Origin: an uncultured Pseudomonadota bacterium
GTDB taxonomy: Bacteria; Pseudomonadota; Alphaproteobacteria; RF32; CAG-239
Direction: 5' to 3'
Length of the DNA: 64,000 nucleotides
Assembly (NCBI GenBank): GCA_902799835.1
Contig: CADCCF010000002.1
Location: 7,338-71,337 of the forward strand
This document shows positions 3,238 through 39,141 of the stretch, in pieces. The notes under the pieces are model-generated. The model was not told the origin of the DNA. It saw only the letters and a list, made by a program, of their open reading frames with translations, and ran no database searches. The position numbers and the translations under genes are program-made. Within the stretch, counting starts at the first letter, position 1, and each line of letters starts with the position of its first letter.

Positions 3238-4512
3238 ATGAATAATAATATAGATGAAAAACAAAATATTTCCGAAAACGACCATCGTCGTATCGGTAAG
3301 GAACTGGACTTATTTTCTTTTAGTGATTATGTAGGATCCGGATTGGCTTTGTGGCATCCCAATGGCGCAATCATTAGAGGCGAAATAGAATCTTTTTGGA
3401 AAAAAGAACATCAAAAAGCCGGCTATAAATATGTCTATTCTCCGGTTGTCGGATTAAAACAGCTATGGGAAAAATCCGGTCATTTGGATCATTTTGCCGA
3501 CTGTATGTATCCGCCGATGGATATGTCCTTAAAGGATAAAGAAGAACAGGGGGCTTATTATGTTAAGCCGATGAGCTGTCCTTTTCATGTGGCAATTTAT
3601 AATGCTTCCGTACATTCATATAAAGAACTTCCGATTAAATATTGTGAACTTGGAAATGTTTATCGTTATGAAGCATCTGGCGGTCTGCAAGGACTATTGC
3701 GCGTTCGTTGCATTACGCAAGATGATGCGCATATTATCTGTCGTCAAGATCAGTTTATGGAAGAGCTTTCAAAGGTTTTGGACTTTGGTTTTGCTTTCAA
3801 TAAAGTCTTTGGCTATGATAAGTTTAAAGTATACTTTTCCATTCGTGATTTAAAAAACAAAAAGGATAAATATATTGAAAACGAGCCCGTTTGGCAAATG
3901 GCCGAGCAAGCGATAGAACAAGTCTTAAAAGACAAAAAACTTCCATATGATATAGATGTCGGAGGAGCAAAATTTTACGGACCGGCCATTGATGTCAAAG
4001 CCGTAGATGAAAATGGCAAGGAATGGCAATGTATGACGATTCAACTGGATATGAATTTGCCGGAAAAATGGGGAATGTCTTATATCGGTGAAGATGGTCA
4101 AAAGCACGTGCCGATTATGTTGCACCGCGCCATTTTAGGATCATTGGAGCGTTTTATCGGCGTATATTTGGAAAGATGCGAAGGTAAATTGCCGGTTTGG
4201 TTGTCACCGATTCAGGTCAAAATTTTACCGGTATCGGACAGGCACCAAGAACAAGCTCTGCAAATTCAAGAACAGCTACTGGCACAAGATATACGTGCTG
4301 AAGCTGATTTATCCAGCAATACGATTTCGTATCAAATCAGAAATGCGGTTAAAAAGAAAATTCCTTATGTTATTGTGATAGGAGACAAAGAAATTGAAAA
4401 TAATCATGTTTCTGTCAGATTGCGTAATGGTGAACAATTAGACGACATTCCGCTTGCTGATTTTATGAAACGTGTATCCGCAAAAATAAAAAACAAAAGT
4501 ATAGATTTGTAA
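3238..4512 (+). CDS. thrS: Threonyl-tRNA synthetase catalytic core plus anticodon-binding domain only (424 aa). The N-terminal TGS and editing domains are absent.
   Basis: Aligns with E. coli ThrRS from about residue 236 (DHRRIGKELDLF vs DHRKIGKQLDLY) through the C-terminus. Class II motifs are present: PMSCPFH, YRYEASGGLQGLLRVRCITQDDAHI and HRAILGSLERFIGVYLE. An in-frame upstream stop prevents N-terminal extension. Confidence 0.85.
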   Translation: MNNNIDEKQNISENDHRRIGKELDLFSFSDYVGSGLALWHPNGAIIRGEIESFWKKEHQKAGYKYVYSPVVGLKQLWEKSGHLDHFADCMYPPMDMSLKDKEEQGAYYVKPMSCPFHVAIYNASVHSYKELPIKYCELGNVYRYEASGGLQGLLRVRCITQDDAHIICRQDQFMEELSKVLDFGFAFNKVFGYDKFKVYFSIRDLKNKKDKYIENEPVWQMAEQAIEQVLKDKKLPYDIDVGGAKFYGPAIDVKAVDENGKEWQCMTIQLDMNLPEKWGMSYIGEDGQKHVPIMLHRAILGSLERFIGVYLERCEGKLPVWLSPIQVKILPVSDRHQEQALQIQEQLLAQDIRAEADLSSNTISYQIRNAVKKKIPYVIVIGDKEIENNHVSVRLRNGEQLDDIPLADFMKRVSAKIKNKSIDL

Positions 4513-4520
4513 AAGCAAAA

Positions 4521-4545
4521 ATCCTCCACAGAAGTGGGGGATTTT
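4521..4545 (+). terminator. Hairpin after thrS-like with a weak T-run.
   Basis: atcctccac-agaa-gtgggggat, then ttt. Confidence 0.35.
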
Positions 4546-4659
4546 ATGTATCATCATGCTGCTGGAATGTTCTTTCTTGACAAGGTTGTGTTTTTATATA
4601 GACTAAGCTTGTTAAATTATAATTATATCCAACAATTATTAATAAAAAATATTATTTCT

Positions 4660-5097
4660 ATGAAAAAATCTAGTAATCATTCCAAATTTGGTGATGAATT
4701 TGATGTTCTATGTATTGTTGATGGCAAAAAAGTTCGCTTGCCGTTTTCTAAAAGAAACCAGGGCGAGCCGATTGGTATCTTTCCATTTAACGGACCGGAA
4801 TATATTGAGCTTGAAGAGGTAGAAAATAAAAAGCACACTGACAAAGATGTTGATGAATCACGCCTTTTAGATGAACGCTTTTGTTGTGGCAAGGTTTCCA
4901 TAGTTGCTGACCGGCTAAACTCCTGCTTAAAAGAGATGGGAAAACCTGTACTGGAAAGCACATATCTTGCAGACAGCTCTTATATGAGGGGTGCGGGATG
5001 GATAATCCGCTTTGATGGTTCAAGTGATTATTACGGCGGCAACATTCCGGCAAAACTGCGCTATATGGGGTATTTCCATGAAGCTTGCCGAAAGTGA
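4660..5097 (+). CDS. Hypothetical protein. The start is uncertain; the ORF is open from 4534.
   Basis: ORF 4534..5097. Upstream ATGs sit inside the terminator hairpin, so the internal ATG at 4660 (MKKSSNHSKF...) is favoured. A clean terminator follows. Confidence 0.4.
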   Translation: MKKSSNHSKFGDEFDVLCIVDGKKVRLPFSKRNQGEPIGIFPFNGPEYIELEEVENKKHTDKDVDESRLLDERFCCGKVSIVADRLNSCLKEMGKPVLESTYLADSSYMRGAGWIIRFDGSSDYYGGNIPAKLRYMGYFHEACRK

Positions 5098-5124
5098 AGC
5101 AGTCAAGACAAGAACATTGCAAAA

Positions 5125-5160
5125 ATTCTCCATAGCGAAACACTATGGAGAATTTTTTGT
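5125..5160 (+). terminator. Rho-independent terminator.
   Basis: attctccatag-cgaaacac-tatggagaat followed by TTTTTTG. Confidence 0.6.
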
Positions 5161-5441
5161 TATAAAAAATCGACGAAAGTATCCGTTTCCTAGTTGTATC
5201 TATATTGGTCGTGCACACTAGGGATAAATCCGAAAATTGATACCATTTTTTGATTGTTTCATTTTCATCTCTAAAATAGTGTGGACGCGTTTTTAGGTTC
5301 GATTACAAAAAAATAGTCTGTTATAAGGCTTTGAAGACAGTTTTATAATTTTACAGCTTAGCATACGGATAAATTAGGAATGAACACTTTATCGAATGCT
5401 TTCTCTTGCGAGTCCATATATTGCGAACCGGTACAAATTAT

Positions 5442-5470
5442 TTGACATATATACAGAATCAGACTATAAT
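5442..5470 (+). promoter_or_regulatory. Perfect-consensus sigma70 promoter TTGACA-17-TATAAT.
   Basis: TTGACA at 5442-5447, a 17-nt spacer and TATAAT at 5465-5470. It lies 35 nt upstream of SD GGAGGAG and ATG 5506. Confidence 0.6.
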
Positions 5471-5505
5471 AAACTCATATTTGTACAATCTATGGAGGAG
5501 AAAAT

Positions 5506-6411
5506 ATGGTTAATATTATTGCCGCCGCCGTTGCCGCCGCTGTTAAGGAACGTCGTATAAGAGAGGAAGAACAAAGGCGATATAGAGAGGCTTTAAGAAT
5601 AGAAGAAGAAAGACGTCGTGAAGAAGAAAGACGTCGTGAAGAAGAAAGACGTCGTGAAGAAGAAAGACGTCGTGAAGAAGAGATTATTGATAAACAAAAG
5701 CGAAGGGCAGAAAATATAGCACGCAACCATCACAGGATATCAGATACGAATAACATCGGTGTAACAGATACGTCAATAACTTTTTTGGAAAAATATTACC
5801 ATCAGAAAGACGAATTATTAAGTGCCATAGTTTCTTCGGACGGCTATGAAAGTAAATGCGCCGACGGTTCGTCCATATTTTTTGGCAAAAATTACTACGT
5901 ACATAAGCTTACAAATGGAGTGCAGAGAATTTATGAAGACCGTGGAAGTTTGGTAAGACTTTGTCGAGAAGATATGCCGGATGGCCGGTCAAGAGTTTAC
6001 GGTGCTAAAGATGAGCATGGTACGCAGTTCACGGATGAAGATTGTTTCTTGCTGTATGAGTGTGATGCGAGCGGAAATTATAAACGCTATGGTGAAAAAG
6101 GCAAATACGGAAAATGGACGAGAACGGACGAAGTTGTGGAAGATGGTAAAATTAATACTTCTGAAATTCTGAATGATAATCAAATTTTTGCATATGAAGA
6201 ACTGAAAAAAGCCATTGAACGCGACGAAGTCGGATTGGATATGTTGAAAATTAAAAAAGAAATTTTACGTAAGAAACTTGGAGGTAAGACAGGTCAAACT
6301 GCAGATTCAAGAACAGGCGAAAAAACAGAAGAACATAAACAAACGGCAAAGACACATATTGATATTACCAAAGTTGTAATGAAAGTAGGGCGAGGACAGA
6401 ACATAAAGTAA
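5506..6411 (+). CDS. Hypothetical 301-aa protein with an N-terminal Ala-rich segment, an (EERRRE)x4 charged repeat and an uncharacterised C-terminal domain.
   Basis: Strong promoter and SD. The ORF ends before a long palindromic terminator. Confidence 0.6.
   Translation: MVNIIAAAVAAAVKERRIREEEQRRYREALRIEEERRREEERRREEERRREEERRREEEIIDKQKRRAENIARNHHRISDTNNIGVTDTSITFLEKYYHQKDELLSAIVSSDGYESKCADGSSIFFGKNYYVHKLTNGVQRIYEDRGSLVRLCREDMPDGRSRVYGAKDEHGTQFTDEDCFLLYECDASGNYKRYGEKGKYGKWTRTDEVVEDGKINTSEILNDNQIFAYEELKKAIERDEVGLDMLKIKKEILRKKLGGKTGQTADSRTGEKTEEHKQTAKTHIDITKVVMKVGRGQNIK
5605..5676 (+). repeat. Four perfect tandem copies of an 18-bp unit gaagaaagacgtcgtgaa (EERRRE) inside CDS 5506..6411.
   Basis: Exact repeats read directly at 5605-5622, 5623-5640, 5641-5658 and 5659-5676. 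Confidence 0.9.
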
Positions 6412-6704
6412 ATCGTCTGACAAATAGTCTTGGTAATTGAATGTTTCCGTAATATGTCCGTATTCAAATACAGAGCAATCAATCTGTTCAAATTTGTCTG
6501 GGGCTAATTCAACAATAAGCCATATAACGGCTCACAATAAAATATTACAGAGCAGAAAGCACCTGAGATATTTTAATGTTGTATATTTTTTCTTTTGTGT
6601 TTCACAACCAGAGGTCAACCCCACCTTATTGGATTTGAACTGGCGACAGCAATCTTGTCAAACACGCTTTCCTCCCGTGTTCTAATCCATTCACTTCGTT
6701 ATTT

Positions 6705-6745
6705 AAAACAGAAAAGGCGGTGATAAACACCGCTTTTTCTGTTTT
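6705..6745. terminator. Long near-perfect palindrome that acts as a bidirectional intrinsic terminator.
   Basis: aaaacagaaaaggcggtg-ataaa-caccgctttttctgtttt. Confidence 0.6.
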
Positions 6746-6747
6746 AA

Positions 6748-6790
6748 TGGTCGGGTTGAAGAGGACTACTTCGTTCACTGCGCTCATCAG
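6748..6790 (-). other. Degenerate partial copy of the 3' half of tRNA-Pro. It is a possible att-site remnant or tRNA pseudogene fragment.
   Basis: tggtcgggttgaagaggact...acttcgttcac...gcgctcatcag aligns with the tRNA-Pro segments tggtcgggacgagaggatt...acttcttgcac...gcgctctaccag. It has an internal deletion and lies 120 bp downstream of the intact tRNA in the same orientation. Confidence 0.4.
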
Positions 6791-6876
6791 CTAAAGCTGA
6801 CCGCCGCGCTTTCGCTCGGCTTTCGCTTGTAGTCGAACCTCCTTTTTCGGAGCTTCAAATCCTGATTCCAAAACCA

Positions 6877-6911
6877 ACAAAAAAACCACCCATAAAGGGT
6901 GGCTTTTTATT
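6877..6911. terminator. Bidirectional terminator hairpin directly 3' of tRNA-Pro.
   Basis: aaaaaaa ccaccc-ataa-agggtgg ctttttatt. Confidence 0.55.
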
Positions 6912-6987
6912 GGTCGGGACGAGAGGATTCGAACCTCCGACTTCTTGCACCCCATGCAAGCGCTCTACCAGACTGAACTACGTCCCG
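6911..6987 (-). tRNA. tRNA-Pro, anticodon GGG.
   Basis: Minus-strand sequence CGGGACG TA GTTC AGTCTGGTA GAGC G CTTGC ATGGGGT GCAAG AAGTC GGAGG TTCGAAT CCTCT CGTCCCG A CCA. It has a C1:G72 pair, A73, G37 and an encoded CCA. Confidence 0.85.
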
Positions 6988-7063
6988 AAAACTCTGTTAT
7001 ATCTAACACAATATTTTTATTATGCAACAAATTTTTGCCGAAACATTTATAATAATAAAAAAA

Positions 7064-7933: not shown

Positions 7934-9994
7934 ATGACTAAAGCAACCGCAAAAAATTCATCTGCCGCCGAAGAAAATATCGGCATCGCTCAAATTTCAA
8001 AACGCGATGGTACATTGGCTCCTTTCGATTCAGAGAGAATCTTTAATGCTATTAACAAAGCAGGTTCTGCCACCAAAGAATTTGATGAGGATGAAAGCCG
8101 TCTGTTAACCGCTCAGGTTTTGAAGGTTTTGAAACATAAGTTCTCTGCAAAAAATTTGCCTTCAATCGAACAAATTCAAGATATTGTTGAGCAGGTTTTG
8201 ATTTCGGCTAACTATTTTAACACCGCCAAGGCCTACATTTTGTATCGTGACCAACGCACCCGCGTTCGCCAAGACAACAAAGTTATGGTTGATGTTGAGA
8301 GTTCGGTTAATGAATATTTGGAAAAGTTGGATTGGCGTATTAATGAAAATGCCAACCAAGGTTATTCCAATGGTGGATTGATTTTGAATGTTGCCGGTAA
8401 GGTAACTGCCAATTATTGGTTGAGCCATGTTTATCCGGCAGCTATCGGTGAGGCTCACCGCAATGGTGATTTTCATATCCATGATTTGAGCATGTTGGCA
8501 GCTTATTGTGCCGGTTGGTCATTAAAGAATCTTCTTCATGAAGGTTTTAACGGAGTTCCCGGCAAAGCTGAGGCTGGACCGGCCAAACACTTAAGTGCCG
8601 CAGTTGGTCAGATGGTTAACTTTATGGGTACTTTGCAAAATGAGTGGGCGGGAGCTCAGGCTTTTTCATCAGTTGATACCTATCTTGCTCCTTATGTTCG
8701 CAAAGATAAATTGTCATATAAACAAGTATATCAGAGCATGCAGGAATTGATTTATAACTTAAACGTTCCTTCTCGTTGGGGTTCACAAACACCTTTCACT
8801 AACTTCACTTTCGATTGGGTTTGTCCGGAAGATTTGCGTGATAAACATCCTTTGATTGCTGGTGTTGAACAAGACTTCACCTATGGCGATTTAAAAGACG
8901 AGATGCACATGATTAACAAAGCCTACATCGAAGTTATGATGAAAGGCGATACCAAAGGTCGTCCGTTTACCTTCCCGATTCCCACCTATAATATGACACC
9001 TGATTTTCCGTGGGAAGACGAAAACACTGAATTGTTGTTCGAAATGACCGCCAAATACGGCTTGCCTTATTTCCAGAACTTTATCAATTCTGTATTAAAA
9101 CCCGGTCAAATTCGTTCAATGTGTTGCCGTCTGCAATTAGACTTGCGCGAATTGTTGGCTCGCGGCAACGGCTTGTTTGGCTCGGCTGAACAAACCGGTT
9201 CAATTGGTGTTGTTACCATCAACTGCGCTCGTTTGGGCTATGTTTACAAAGGCAACGAAGCCGGTCTTTATGCTCGTTTGGATGAATTGATGGATATGGC
9301 CAAGGTATCCTTGGAAATCAAACGTAAACTCATTCAGCGCCTGATTGACCAAGGATTATTCCCTTATACCAAACGTTATTTGGGAACTTTACGCAACCAC
9401 TTCTCAACCATTGGTGTTAATGGCATCAACGAGATGATTAGAAACTTCACCAATGATGAACACGAAATTGCCGATGAATGGGGACAAGCTTTTGCTGTTA
9501 AATTCTTGGATTATATTCGCGATCGTTTGGTCAAAATTCAAGAAGAAACCGGTCATATGTATAACCTCGAAGCCACTCCGGCTGAGGGTGCAACAACTCG
9601 TTTTGCCCGTGAAGATAAAAAACGTTTTGCTGACATTATCCAAGCCGGTCCGAAAGAGAATCCTTTTTATACCAATTCATCACAGTTGCCGGTTGGCTAC
9701 ACCGATGATCCGTTTGAAGCTTTGGAATTACAATCAACTCTTCAAACCAAGTACACCGGAGGAACCGTGTTGCACCTTTACATGGGACAGCGTATTTCCT
9801 CAGCCAAAGTTTGTCGCGACATTGTAAAACGTGTTTTGACAAACTACCGGTTGCCTTATGTTACCATCACCCCGACTTTTTCCATTTGCCCAAAACATGG
9901 ATATATCTCGGGAGAACATAAATACTGCCCGATTTGTGATGAAGAAAAGAAGGCAGCAAAAAGAGCCGCAGCATCAAGAAAAGATGTTGCTTAA
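7934..9994 (+). CDS. nrdD: Anaerobic ribonucleoside-triphosphate reductase large (catalytic) polypeptide with an N-terminal ATP-cone. The glycyl-radical motif is not in this ORF.
   Basis: ATP-cone ISKRDGTLAPFDSERIFNAINKAG and a class III RNR body. It ends in a Cys/His cluster CPKHGYISGEHKYCPIC. The start was set at the internal ATG 7934 of track ORF 7850. Confidence 0.85.
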   Translation: MTKATAKNSSAAEENIGIAQISKRDGTLAPFDSERIFNAINKAGSATKEFDEDESRLLTAQVLKVLKHKFSAKNLPSIEQIQDIVEQVLISANYFNTAKAYILYRDQRTRVRQDNKVMVDVESSVNEYLEKLDWRINENANQGYSNGGLILNVAGKVTANYWLSHVYPAAIGEAHRNGDFHIHDLSMLAAYCAGWSLKNLLHEGFNGVPGKAEAGPAKHLSAAVGQMVNFMGTLQNEWAGAQAFSSVDTYLAPYVRKDKLSYKQVYQSMQELIYNLNVPSRWGSQTPFTNFTFDWVCPEDLRDKHPLIAGVEQDFTYGDLKDEMHMINKAYIEVMMKGDTKGRPFTFPIPTYNMTPDFPWEDENTELLFEMTAKYGLPYFQNFINSVLKPGQIRSMCCRLQLDLRELLARGNGLFGSAEQTGSIGVVTINCARLGYVYKGNEAGLYARLDELMDMAKVSLEIKRKLIQRLIDQGLFPYTKRYLGTLRNHFSTIGVNGINEMIRNFTNDEHEIADEWGQAFAVKFLDYIRDRLVKIQEETGHMYNLEATPAEGATTRFAREDKKRFADIIQAGPKENPFYTNSSQLPVGYTDDPFEALELQSTLQTKYTGGTVLHLYMGQRISSAKVCRDIVKRVLTNYRLPYVTITPTFSICPKHGYISGEHKYCPICDEEKKAAKRAAASRKDVA

Positions 9995-39054: not shown

Positions 39055-39141
39055 GCTCTGGTGGCGGAATTGGTAGACGCGCAAGTTTCAGGTACTTGTG
39101 AGGGTTTCCTCGTGAAAGTTCGAGTCTTTTCCAGAGCACCA
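39055..39141 (+). tRNA. tRNA-Leu, anticodon CAG.
   Basis: GCTCTGG acceptor, anticodon loop TTCAGGT, a long variable arm, a TTCGAGT T-loop and an encoded CCA. Confidence 0.88.

Follow-up and report, generated by a model that had tools for sequence, protein, structure and literature searches.

A conserved foldback unit with tRNA-derived arms behind tRNA-Pro genes of uncultured Alphaproteobacteria

In the tycheposons of Prochlorococcus, each insertion at a tRNA 3′ end displaces earlier ones outward, with partial tRNAs left behind (10.1101/2020.12.28.424599), and the attC recombination sites of integrons are defined in the IntegronFinder paper (PMC4889954). Here, we describe a 133-nt foldback unit that lies behind a tRNA-Pro gene in a 64,000-nt stretch of contig CADCCF010000002.1 from an uncultured alphaproteobacterium (the window, meaning the whole stretch of DNA that was analyzed). 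The unit ends in a degenerate copy of the tRNA 3′ end and shares features with tRNA-integrating islands, integron cassettes, the attachment site of the phage CTX-φ, and tRNA-like RNAs. For CTX-φ, Val et al. are said to have described in 2005 a folded single-stranded attachment site (attP) that recombines in an Xer-dependent manner (integrative mobile element exploiting Xer, IMEX) and in which inverted copies of the target site pair to mimic a duplex site. Known tRNA-like RNAs comprise the tRNA-like domain of transfer-messenger RNA (tmRNA), the bacterial Y-RNA-like YrlA, and viral tRNA-like structures.

The sequence material consists throughout of metagenome assemblies and metagenome-assembled genomes (MAGs), in which L numbers label related loci or contigs. 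One of these, the independent assembly L001, is identical to the window throughout the unit region.

Anatomy and conservation of the foldback unit

The tRNA-Pro gene, its terminator, and the foldback unit follow each other on the minus strand of the window. The covariance model used for the unit (R1) rests on 14 units, with a structure drawn by hand. The features of this region are as follows.

6911–6987, minus strand: tRNA-Pro, anticodon GGG, CCA encoded (ARAGORN; Rfam RF00005, 60.8 bits; 100% identical in ten related loci)
6880–6908, minus strand: intrinsic bidirectional-type terminator directly after tRNA-Pro (terminator scan; 12-pair stem and T run)
6748–6880, minus strand: foldback unit, consisting of outer left arm, hairpin H1, three-way-junction core, and right arm with terminal CCA (R1, 134.3 bits, E 8.6e-31; identical in L001)
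6859–6879, minus strand: outer left arm (GUUGGUUUUGGAAUCAGGAU), complement of the right arm, with the 5′ strands of helices P1a and P1b (P1a/P1b pairs; minimum free energy folds)
6865–6871 with 6751–6757, minus strand: helix P1a
6859–6863 with 6762–6766, minus strand: helix P1b
6833–6858, minus strand: hairpin H1, GAAAAA loop (10-bp helix; 91% of cells paired in 19 units; RNAalifold)
6768–6832, minus strand: core, 65 nt, inserted at T-loop position 58/59 (compensatory changes in P2, P3, and P4)
6822–6826 with 6782–6786, minus strand: helix P2, tandem G·A
6814–6820 with 6803–6809, minus strand: hairpin P3, GAAA loop, conserved G·A
6796–6800 with 6787–6791, minus strand: hairpin P4
6768–6783, minus strand: conserved purine-rich junction GCGCAGUGAACGAAGUA
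6748–6767, minus strand: right arm, degenerate copy of tRNA positions 59–76 (AGUCCUCUUCAACCCGACCA; 16/20; exact copies in relatives)

The copy of the tRNA-Pro 3′ end lies in the same orientation as the gene, at a distance of 163 nt. Aligned with a single gap, positions 6748–6767 (sense AGTCCTCTTCAACCCGACCA) agree with the last 19 nt of the tRNA (AATCCTCTCGTCCCGACCA) at 16 of 20 columns. The homologous segment is a 100% match to the adjacent tRNA 3′ end in L003, L004, L087, L091, L099, and L086, which settles the homology of the window fragment to the tRNA end and bears out the initial annotation, in which a degenerate, co-oriented copy had been proposed. That annotation extended the match through the blocks acttcgttcac and gcgctcatcag (6768–6790) to anticodon-proximal parts of the tRNA; aligned to the anticodon and D-arm part, these blocks scored 13, which was equaled or beaten by 2043 of 5000 shuffles. 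The full gapped alignment scored 22, a value found in 4 of 2977 random 133-nt windows and in 49 of 3000 shuffles. Of the proposed match, the first 20 nt are homologous to the tRNA, and the remainder is at chance level.

Two further pieces of the tRNA are found in the unit. An exact copy of tRNA positions 49–58 (GGAGGTTCGA, T stem and T loop; 10/10) occupies 6833–6842 and is parted from the 3′-end copy by the 65-nt insert, and an inverted T-arm copy at ∼6849–6865 matches the reverse complement of the tRNA at 15 of 17 positions. The T arm and the acceptor 3′ strand are thus both present, split by the insert and with their own complement in front. The homology is confined to positions 49–58, positions 59–76, and the inverted copy, and similarity of the core to the tRNA is at chance level. 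ARAGORN and Rfam report only the gene at 6911–6987 and call no tRNA gene or pseudogene within the unit.

In the proposed fold, the 3′ strand of H1 (GGAGGUUCGA, 6833–6842) is the exact copy of tRNA 49–58, and the 5′ strand (6849–6858) is its complement from the inverted T-arm copy. GGUUCGA is therefore base-paired inside H1, and the unit possesses neither a T loop nor a D loop. The right arm supplies the 3′ strands of P1a (6751–6757) and P1b (6762–6766); in units that have an exact tRNA end (L084 and L094-1), P1a is the tRNA acceptor stem. P3 contains one invariant noncanonical pair, and its GNRA-type loops interchange among units (GAAA, GGAA, GUAA, and GCAA). Judged from its sequence, the unit is a build of the 3′ third of tRNA-Pro, made of an inverted copy, a short loop, and a direct copy, with the 65-nt core at the T-loop position.

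A search with R1 that covered about 290–300 kb of related DNA returned 19 strong unit matches from 12 sources (39–138 bits; window copy, 134.3 bits), and additional units occur in L113–L121. All hosts among the R1 matches are related uncultured Alphaproteobacteria from gut and rumen. In 672 kb of unrelated bacterial loci, the model gave one match of 16.6 bits, and tRNA genes score ∼15 bits. In the alignment of the 19 units, which was fitted to R1 and is biased toward the proposed structure, 82% of the cells in paired columns are paired (74.8 ± 0.7 in shuffles), and double changes affect 22 pairs (11.2 ± 2 in shuffles). The covariation score of 0.244 compares with 0.138 for shuffled alignments, none of 500 reaching 0.244, and with 0.04–0.07 for slid controls. 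RNAalifold recovered H1 and P3 independently. Minimum free energy RNA folds of 12 single units gave z values of −1.0 to −6.2, and the P1 closing helix is common to all of them. G·U cells (56) exceed A·C cells (27), which marks the tRNA-sense strand as the folded one. By these data, the units are shown to belong to one conserved family whose helices covary. The stretch between fragment and tRNA gene, taken in the initial annotation for a decayed, reduced element or a plain pseudogene, is instead a conserved unit present in many genomes.

The units are located downstream of, and co-oriented with, tRNA-Pro genes in 0–3 copies, with one weak case at a tRNA-Met gene. Most are followed by a terminator of their own, and a strong intrinsic terminator lies within a few bases before every unit. 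The window contains one unit in 64 kb, and in related loci all copies adjoin tRNA genes or cassette ends; a dispersed repeat was rejected, since a short-word BLAST of the unit against the window gave no second copy. A second tRNA gene of the window, tRNA-Leu(CAG) at 39055–39141, has no unit downstream according to R1. Permissive cmscan of the window region and of L084–L086 against Rfam 15 found tRNA only, all other matches being far below thresholds. Neither blastn against phage and plasmid collections nor a search for exact motifs in viral contigs gave a match to the unit, and we found no description of such elements in the literature.

Conservation extends to the distal units, which are 71–94% identical across species with HisRS identities of 72–94%, whereas the adjacent terminators are only 56–75% identical. 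The hairpin of the terminator after tRNA-Pro is likewise kept among relatives, and its stem sequence varies. In L003, L087, and L091, the order is tRNA, terminator, unit 1 with an exact tRNA 3′ end, terminator, and unit 2 with the degenerate end UCUUCAACCCGACCA that is also found in the window and is conserved in six units. Repeats of 50–115 bp flank the units, and exact 19-nt repeats of the tRNA end (∼50 nt including the terminator) are present in L003, L004, L087, L091, and L086. L004 contains a longer, divergent insert between two direct repeats of ∼50 nt (tRNA end and terminator); its left arm reaches CCGACUUCUU, the reverse complement of tRNA 41–50, which identifies the left arm as an inverted copy of the tRNA 3′ third.

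The arms follow the local tRNA. Unit A of L086 is located behind a tRNA-Pro(CGG), ends in the 3′ end of that tRNA, and has both H1 strands changed to match. The units of L006 are based on another tRNA-like end. Behind the tRNA-Met of L007, a weak match (19 bits) consists of CAGGGGUCCGAA, core, and AAUCCCUUCGCCGC; the core is again placed at the T-loop position, and the junction GCGCAGUGAACGAAGUA is conserved even there.

DNA exchange at the CCA end and the cassettes

Comparison of closely related loci shows that DNA is exchanged base-exactly at the ...CGACCA end of the tRNA or unit. L093 and L094 are 100% identical over 323 nt upstream and the tRNA, but only 42% identical from the first base past CCA. 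Conversely, L003 and L096 have unrelated upstream spacers, whereas their first 60 nt after CCA are 98% identical. A 120-nt block that starts at the base of H1 and stops at CCA is 100% identical between L015 and L086-B, two loci that lie behind different tRNA-Pro genes and have unrelated sequence on both sides of the block. Copy number varies even among contigs with one BOF allele, with no unit detected in L093, two units in L094, and two units flanking a cargo gene in L096. Arrays have a proximal unit with the exact tRNA end and a distal unit with a degenerate end, as would be expected if insertions at the tRNA had followed one another. tRNA-Pro(GGG) at 6911–6987 is best read as the primary attachment point of the array.

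In the window, a cargo cassette is inserted exactly after the CCA of the unit, as seen by comparison with L003 and L091. Its features are the following.

5206–6747, no strand: 1.54-kb cargo cassette (absent from L003 and L091; direct CGACCA flanks; breakpoints versus L003/L091)
6712–6746, no strand: bidirectional terminator directly after the CCA of the unit, first module of the cassette (terminator scan; in the segment common to L112)
5506–6411, plus strand: cargo gene p301 (charged coiled-coil N terminus and repeated domain; no Pfam family)
5206–5246, minus strand: cassette-ending mini-unit (AUGGUAUCAAUUUUCGGAUUUAUCCCUAGUGUGCACGACCA) with small hairpin and CGACCA end (homologous mini-units in L112 and L087)

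Between the terminator and the mini-unit, which ends in GCACGACCA, the cassette contains a doubtful 82-aa open reading frame (ORF) and p301 (301 aa). The p301 protein has a charged N terminus of the (EEERRR)n type and a ∼120-aa domain. The domain occurs once in the window and in L112 (306 aa, 584–1504) and is duplicated in L001 (420 aa, 4069–5331), a contig otherwise identical to the window. Among 5.8 billion proteins, homologues of p301 form one cluster, with the sole homologue on L112.

L112 carries the whole segment with 93.8% identity over window positions 5205–6763, and both flanks differ. At the proximal junction of L112, the segment borders on the ...CCCCGACCA end of another type of unit; at the distal junction, a terminator follows GCACGACCA where the window has its own flank. 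Sequence shared by the window and L112 at the junctions amounts to only 6–8 nt, which argues against an assembly artifact and against homologous recombination. Thus, a larger island, which the initial annotation had sought, does exist (5206–6747); it lies on the far side of the fragment, not between fragment and tRNA, and is bounded by the mini-site at 5206–5246 that ends in CGACCA.

Other loci are organized similarly. L096 and L113 contain a unit, a gene for a 266-aa protein, ...CUCCGACCA, a terminator, and a unit; L006 contains a unit, a GNAT-like gene, and a unit; and L087 contains a unit, a gene for a 151-aa GNAT protein, and a mini-unit. The cargo proteins (p301, the 266-, 349-, and 294-aa proteins, and others) are mutually unrelated.

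The loci show both the direct repeat of the tRNA 3′ end with the tRNA restored and the breakpoint polymorphism (L093/L094, L003/L096, window versus L091/L003, and L112) that are expected of left and right attachment sites (attL/attR) of a tRNA-integrating element; an element-borne integrase was not found among the flanking and cargo proteins scanned. The signature of tRNA-targeted site-specific integration that had been seen in the fragment was supported by the split of L093 and L094 right after CCA, by the arrays with exact proximal and degenerate distal ends, and by the cargo at the CCA of the fragment in two contexts.

Several observations concern the ends of the cassettes. The mini-units are 35–45 nt long and consist of a small hairpin and ...GCACGACCA or ...CUCCGACCA, without H1 and core (window 5206–5246, minus strand; L087 4090–4137, plus strand; L112 283–325; L113 3340–3374). 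Their hairpins (CGGAUUUAUCC in the window, CCUGAUUUAGG in L112) differ in sequence and keep the pairing. Three different cargo segments (L006 after 13015, L096 after 834, and L106 after 3080) have homologous terminators (ACAAGTCGTC...GGCGACTTTTTCTTTT) at their start, directly behind CCA, which suggests a shared “head” module of the cassettes. Past the final CCA of an array, the DNA begins with ATATRGATAAC in the window (5195–5205), L091 (∼3617), L003 (∼8595), and L086 (∼2581), and with TTTACATAAC in L015 (∼10594) and L087 (4138). These start sequences recur even at nonorthologous loci and may be part of the recombination site.

On the other side of the tRNA, a decayed 5′ half of tRNA-Pro (positions 1–38, CGGGACAAAAGTTCAGTCTGGCAAAAGCGCTTGCATGGGG) is found in its ancestral upstream context in L113 (1798–2020), L116 (1458–1686), and L003 (∼9013–9060). 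It is followed by an insert of ∼190 nt ending in the palindrome AGAAGTCG/CCGACTTCTTGCAA, a new promoter-like stretch, and an intact tRNA. These relatives indicate that the tRNA recombined on its 5′ or anticodon side as well. The window keeps an uninterrupted context upstream of tRNA-Pro (6988–7010).

Beside the array of L006 (7378–11555), we found genes for an Mrr-type restriction endonuclease, a WYL/WCX regulator, and an AAA ATPase, and beside that of L015 (8419–10417) genes for a D12 adenine methyltransferase and a 298-aa partner. Both sets look like defense cargo.

Recombination site, RNA gene, or scar

We favor, with about even confidence, the reading that the units are folded, attC-like recombination sites of small nonautonomous cassettes that stack at tRNA 3′ ends. 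Each cassette would consist of a full or miniature unit, a copy of the tRNA 3′ end, and a terminator; because a cassette brings both the tRNA 3′ end and the terminator, its insertion would rebuild a working tRNA gene. New cassettes, with or without a cargo gene, would enter at the tRNA, and older ones would be pushed outward and decay. In a folded single strand, the two arms would re-create a duplex copy of the acceptor and T-stem region of the tRNA, and a site-specific recombinase encoded in trans would exchange the strands within CGACCA. The window unit would then be an old, distal member of an array, whose tRNA-like end later became the insertion point of the 1.54-kb p301 cassette. If so, cassette circles are expected to carry the junction ...GCACGACCA joined to TTAAAACAG..., and likewise ...GUGUGCACGACCA joined to TTAAAACAGAAAAAGCGG..., and a precise empty site should read ...CAACCCGACCA joined to ATATAGATAC.... 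A more specific and only tentative version is a cassette-capture system analogous to integrons, in which the tRNA 3′ end would serve as attI, the ∼130-nt foldback units or ∼40-nt mini-units would serve as sites, the recombinase would be encoded elsewhere, and the core would possibly act, as RNA or DNA, as a cofactor in guiding or regulating the reaction.

Several points weigh against folded recombination sites. The mini-units lack H1 and core and still bound cassettes, which makes the core seem dispensable for recombination and leaves its conservation unexplained. We found no gene for a recombinase within ∼8 kb of the window unit, nor beside the arrays of L006, L015, and L004, and Pfam detected no recombinase domain in 27 flanking and cargo proteins, so that the catalyst is purely inferred. 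Neither a cassette circle nor an excision product was seen in the metagenome assemblies and MAGs, the material to which every dataset belongs. Folded as single-stranded DNA, the window unit is no better than shuffles (z −1.19). The interchange of GNRA loops, the tandem G·A pairs, and the purine-rich junction would be expected in a functional RNA more than in a DNA site. Finally, mosaic units (L087-1 versus L087-2 and L116 versus L113) indicate that ordinary homologous recombination also shuffles the repeats.

The main rival, which we consider possible though doubtful, is a stable, structured small RNA that the unit would encode and that would imitate the acceptor end of tRNA-Pro. Its multihelix core would be closed by a helix of ∼12 bp with ACCA at the end, and the RNA would arise by read-through from the tRNA promoter and trimming by tRNA-processing enzymes. 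Tandem duplication, together with gene conversion between units and tRNA, would have produced the arrays, and the tRNA-like ends would have received cargo as secondary targets of foreign integrases. The covarying helices with more G·U than A·C on the tRNA-sense strand fit this rival, as do the RNA folds, which exceed shuffles in stability throughout, in contrast to the DNA fold of the window unit. The same is true for the GNRA interchange, the tandem G·A of P2, the invariant noncanonical pair of P3, and the junction GCGCAGUGAACGAAGUA that is kept even at tRNA-Met, for the identity of P1a with the acceptor stem in exact-end units (L084 and L094-1), and for the terminator after most units. However, the strong intrinsic terminator just before every unit, together with the lack of any promoter-like site found, makes expression of the unit doubtful. 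The unit also matches no Rfam family and has no T loop or D loop, its GGUUCGA being paired in H1, and an RNA gene explains neither the core-less mini-units that end cassettes nor the identical cassette junctions in two contexts. The two readings are not mutually exclusive. Two further explanations account for the tRNA-derived arms, but not for the covarying core or the cassette junctions. According to one of them, which is improbable, the fragment is a passive scar, i.e. a displaced tRNA 3′ end (attR) or a pseudogene fragment, and the ∼130 bp are the decayed, functionless rest of an excised island. The degeneracy of the fragment (16/20), the absence of a nearby integrase, and the frequency of partial tRNAs in islands behind tRNA genes agree with a scar. 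It is largely refuted by the covarying helices and by the conservation of the intervening sequence across species (HisRS, 72–94% identical), in which distal units are 71–94% identical versus 56–75% for terminators; moreover, the unit recurs in tandem and at other tRNA genes, and the “degenerate” end UCUUCAACCCGACCA is itself conserved in six units. The other is very unlikely; here, template switching during replication or fold-back synthesis would have produced the direct-inverted-direct arrangement of the tRNA end around terminator palindromes, and copy number would change by slippage between repeated segments of tRNA end and terminator, with neither a dedicated recombinase nor a function involved. 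It would account for a left arm that reads outward from the terminator as the exact reverse complement of the tRNA end, for the extension of this arm to CCGACUUCUU (reverse complement of tRNA 41–50) in L004, for the similar palindrome AGAAGTCG/CCGACTTCT upstream of the tRNA in L113 and L116, and for the 50–115-bp repeats flanking units. It leaves unexplained the conserved core at one T-loop position in units from different tRNAs, the compensatory changes, and unrelated cargo at identical 6–8-bp junctions in two contexts.

Other candidates were rejected. A hammerhead ribozyme was suggested by CUGAUGAG...CGAA in the window copy, but other units read CCGAUUG..., the stems misfit, and Rfam is silent. 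ARAGORN finds no tmRNA, including the permuted form. A T-loop intron or split tRNA would require pairing with CCUCU, whereas the GGAGG strand pairs with its upstream complement in H1, and no cloverleaf forms. The cargo proteins are not a hidden recombinase family, being mutually unrelated. Elements of the IS200/IS605 type and guide-RNA systems (TnpB/IscB and bridge RNA) came into question because the sequence TTCGA stands before the core as well as before the mobile block; the vicinity of the unit contains no gene of this kind.

Comparison with known systems and the neighborhood of the unit

Compared with tRNA-integrating islands (P4-type islands and tycheposons), the locus has the same direct repeat of the tRNA 3′ end that bounds the insert, incoming DNA that restores the tRNA, older insertions that are pushed outward and leave partial tRNAs, variable cargo including defense genes, and strain heterogeneity. 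In contrast to these islands, the elements have no integrase within or beside them and are as small as ∼190 bp with at most one gene. Their attachment region folds back on itself over 130 nt and contains the tRNA end in an inverted copy as well as a structured, covarying core.

With integrons, the locus shares small, mostly single-gene cassettes that each end in an imperfect palindrome of ∼60–140 nt, whose structure is more conserved than its sequence and which folds on one strand, as well as exchange at the base of the hairpin; arrays without integrase (clusters of attC sites lacking integron-integrases, CALINs) are known for integrons as well. Indeed, we found both a structure-conserved palindrome on one strand and the p301 cassette in two contexts (window and L112). 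By inspection, the attC boxes R″ (RYYYAAC) and R′ (GTTRRRY) are absent, and the GTT/AAC-like heptamers of the unit are reversed and not paired together. No IntI-type integrase is encoded next to the primary site among the genes scanned upstream of tRNA-Pro. Unlike attC, the unit is tRNA-derived; the primary site is a tRNA gene and not attI, and cargo occurs in either orientation with its own terminators.

Similar to attP of CTX-φ, two inverted copies of the target can pair in a single strand, and tandem arrays form at the target. The target, however, is a tRNA end and not dif, the arms being tRNA-derived and not dif-like by eye; no phage genes or Xer-type site were recognized, and recombination as a single strand is, for the units, inferred by analogy. 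With tRNA-like RNAs, the unit shares an acceptor-stem mimic that ends in CCA and a sequence derived from or resembling tRNA; it differs in lacking the T loop/D loop elbow, an Rfam match, and a tmRNA call, in that no promoter was found, and in having a terminator directly upstream. Repetitive extragenic palindromic sequences and the hairpins formed by them (REP and REPIN) and miniature inverted-repeat transposable elements (MITEs) are likewise short, noncoding, hairpin-forming, nonautonomous repeats behind genes, whereas the units are not dispersed (1 copy/64 kb) and their arms reproduce the sequence of the local tRNA.

Partial copies of tRNAs that lie behind tRNA genes tend to be dismissed as scars of integration. 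Here, such a copy is part of a conserved, structured module, which is found again in other species, follows the local tRNA, and marks base-exact junctions of single-gene cassettes with no integrase beside it. Should the units be cassette sites, they would provide uncultured gut and rumen Alphaproteobacteria with small genomes with a route to shuffle accessory and defense-type genes, and would extend the folded single-strand sites of integrons and CTX-φ to tRNA genes. Should they encode RNA, they would represent a new class of RNAs that mimic a tRNA end. In either case, the R1 model is a handle for annotation that flags variable hot spots and avoids the miscalling of units as tRNA fragments.

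The genes near the unit encode HisRS, a 187-aa ORF, a BOF-family protein, and NrdD; upstream of tRNA-Pro, we found BOF, a 67-aa ORF, NrdD, and a radical-SAM activase. HisRS relatives with 72–94% identity all belong to MAGs of uncultured Alphaproteobacteria from rumen and gut. Mechanically called ORFs of 53 and 54 aa over the unit and the tRNA (6626–6787 and 6791–6955, minus strand) are almost certainly spurious, because they are unconserved in relatives; the ATG within CUGAUGAGC of the window unit ORF is missing from other units. In L003 (7298–8483), the homologue of the 187-aa ORF (window 4534–5097) is found by tblastn in two pieces that are ∼630 bp apart, which could be an insertion or a disruption of the frame. 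L002 stops at 3590 and L095 at 3076, within or just past the terminator of tRNA-Pro; such assembly breaks are consistent with strain heterogeneity or repeats at a hot spot. At the start of the window, a C-terminal exonuclease domain of the RNase_T/DnaQ type is joined in the ORF at 259–1284 to an N-terminal part matching HNH-endonuclease PHROGs, and the neighboring ORF at 1491–2444 encodes a DUF6994 protein.

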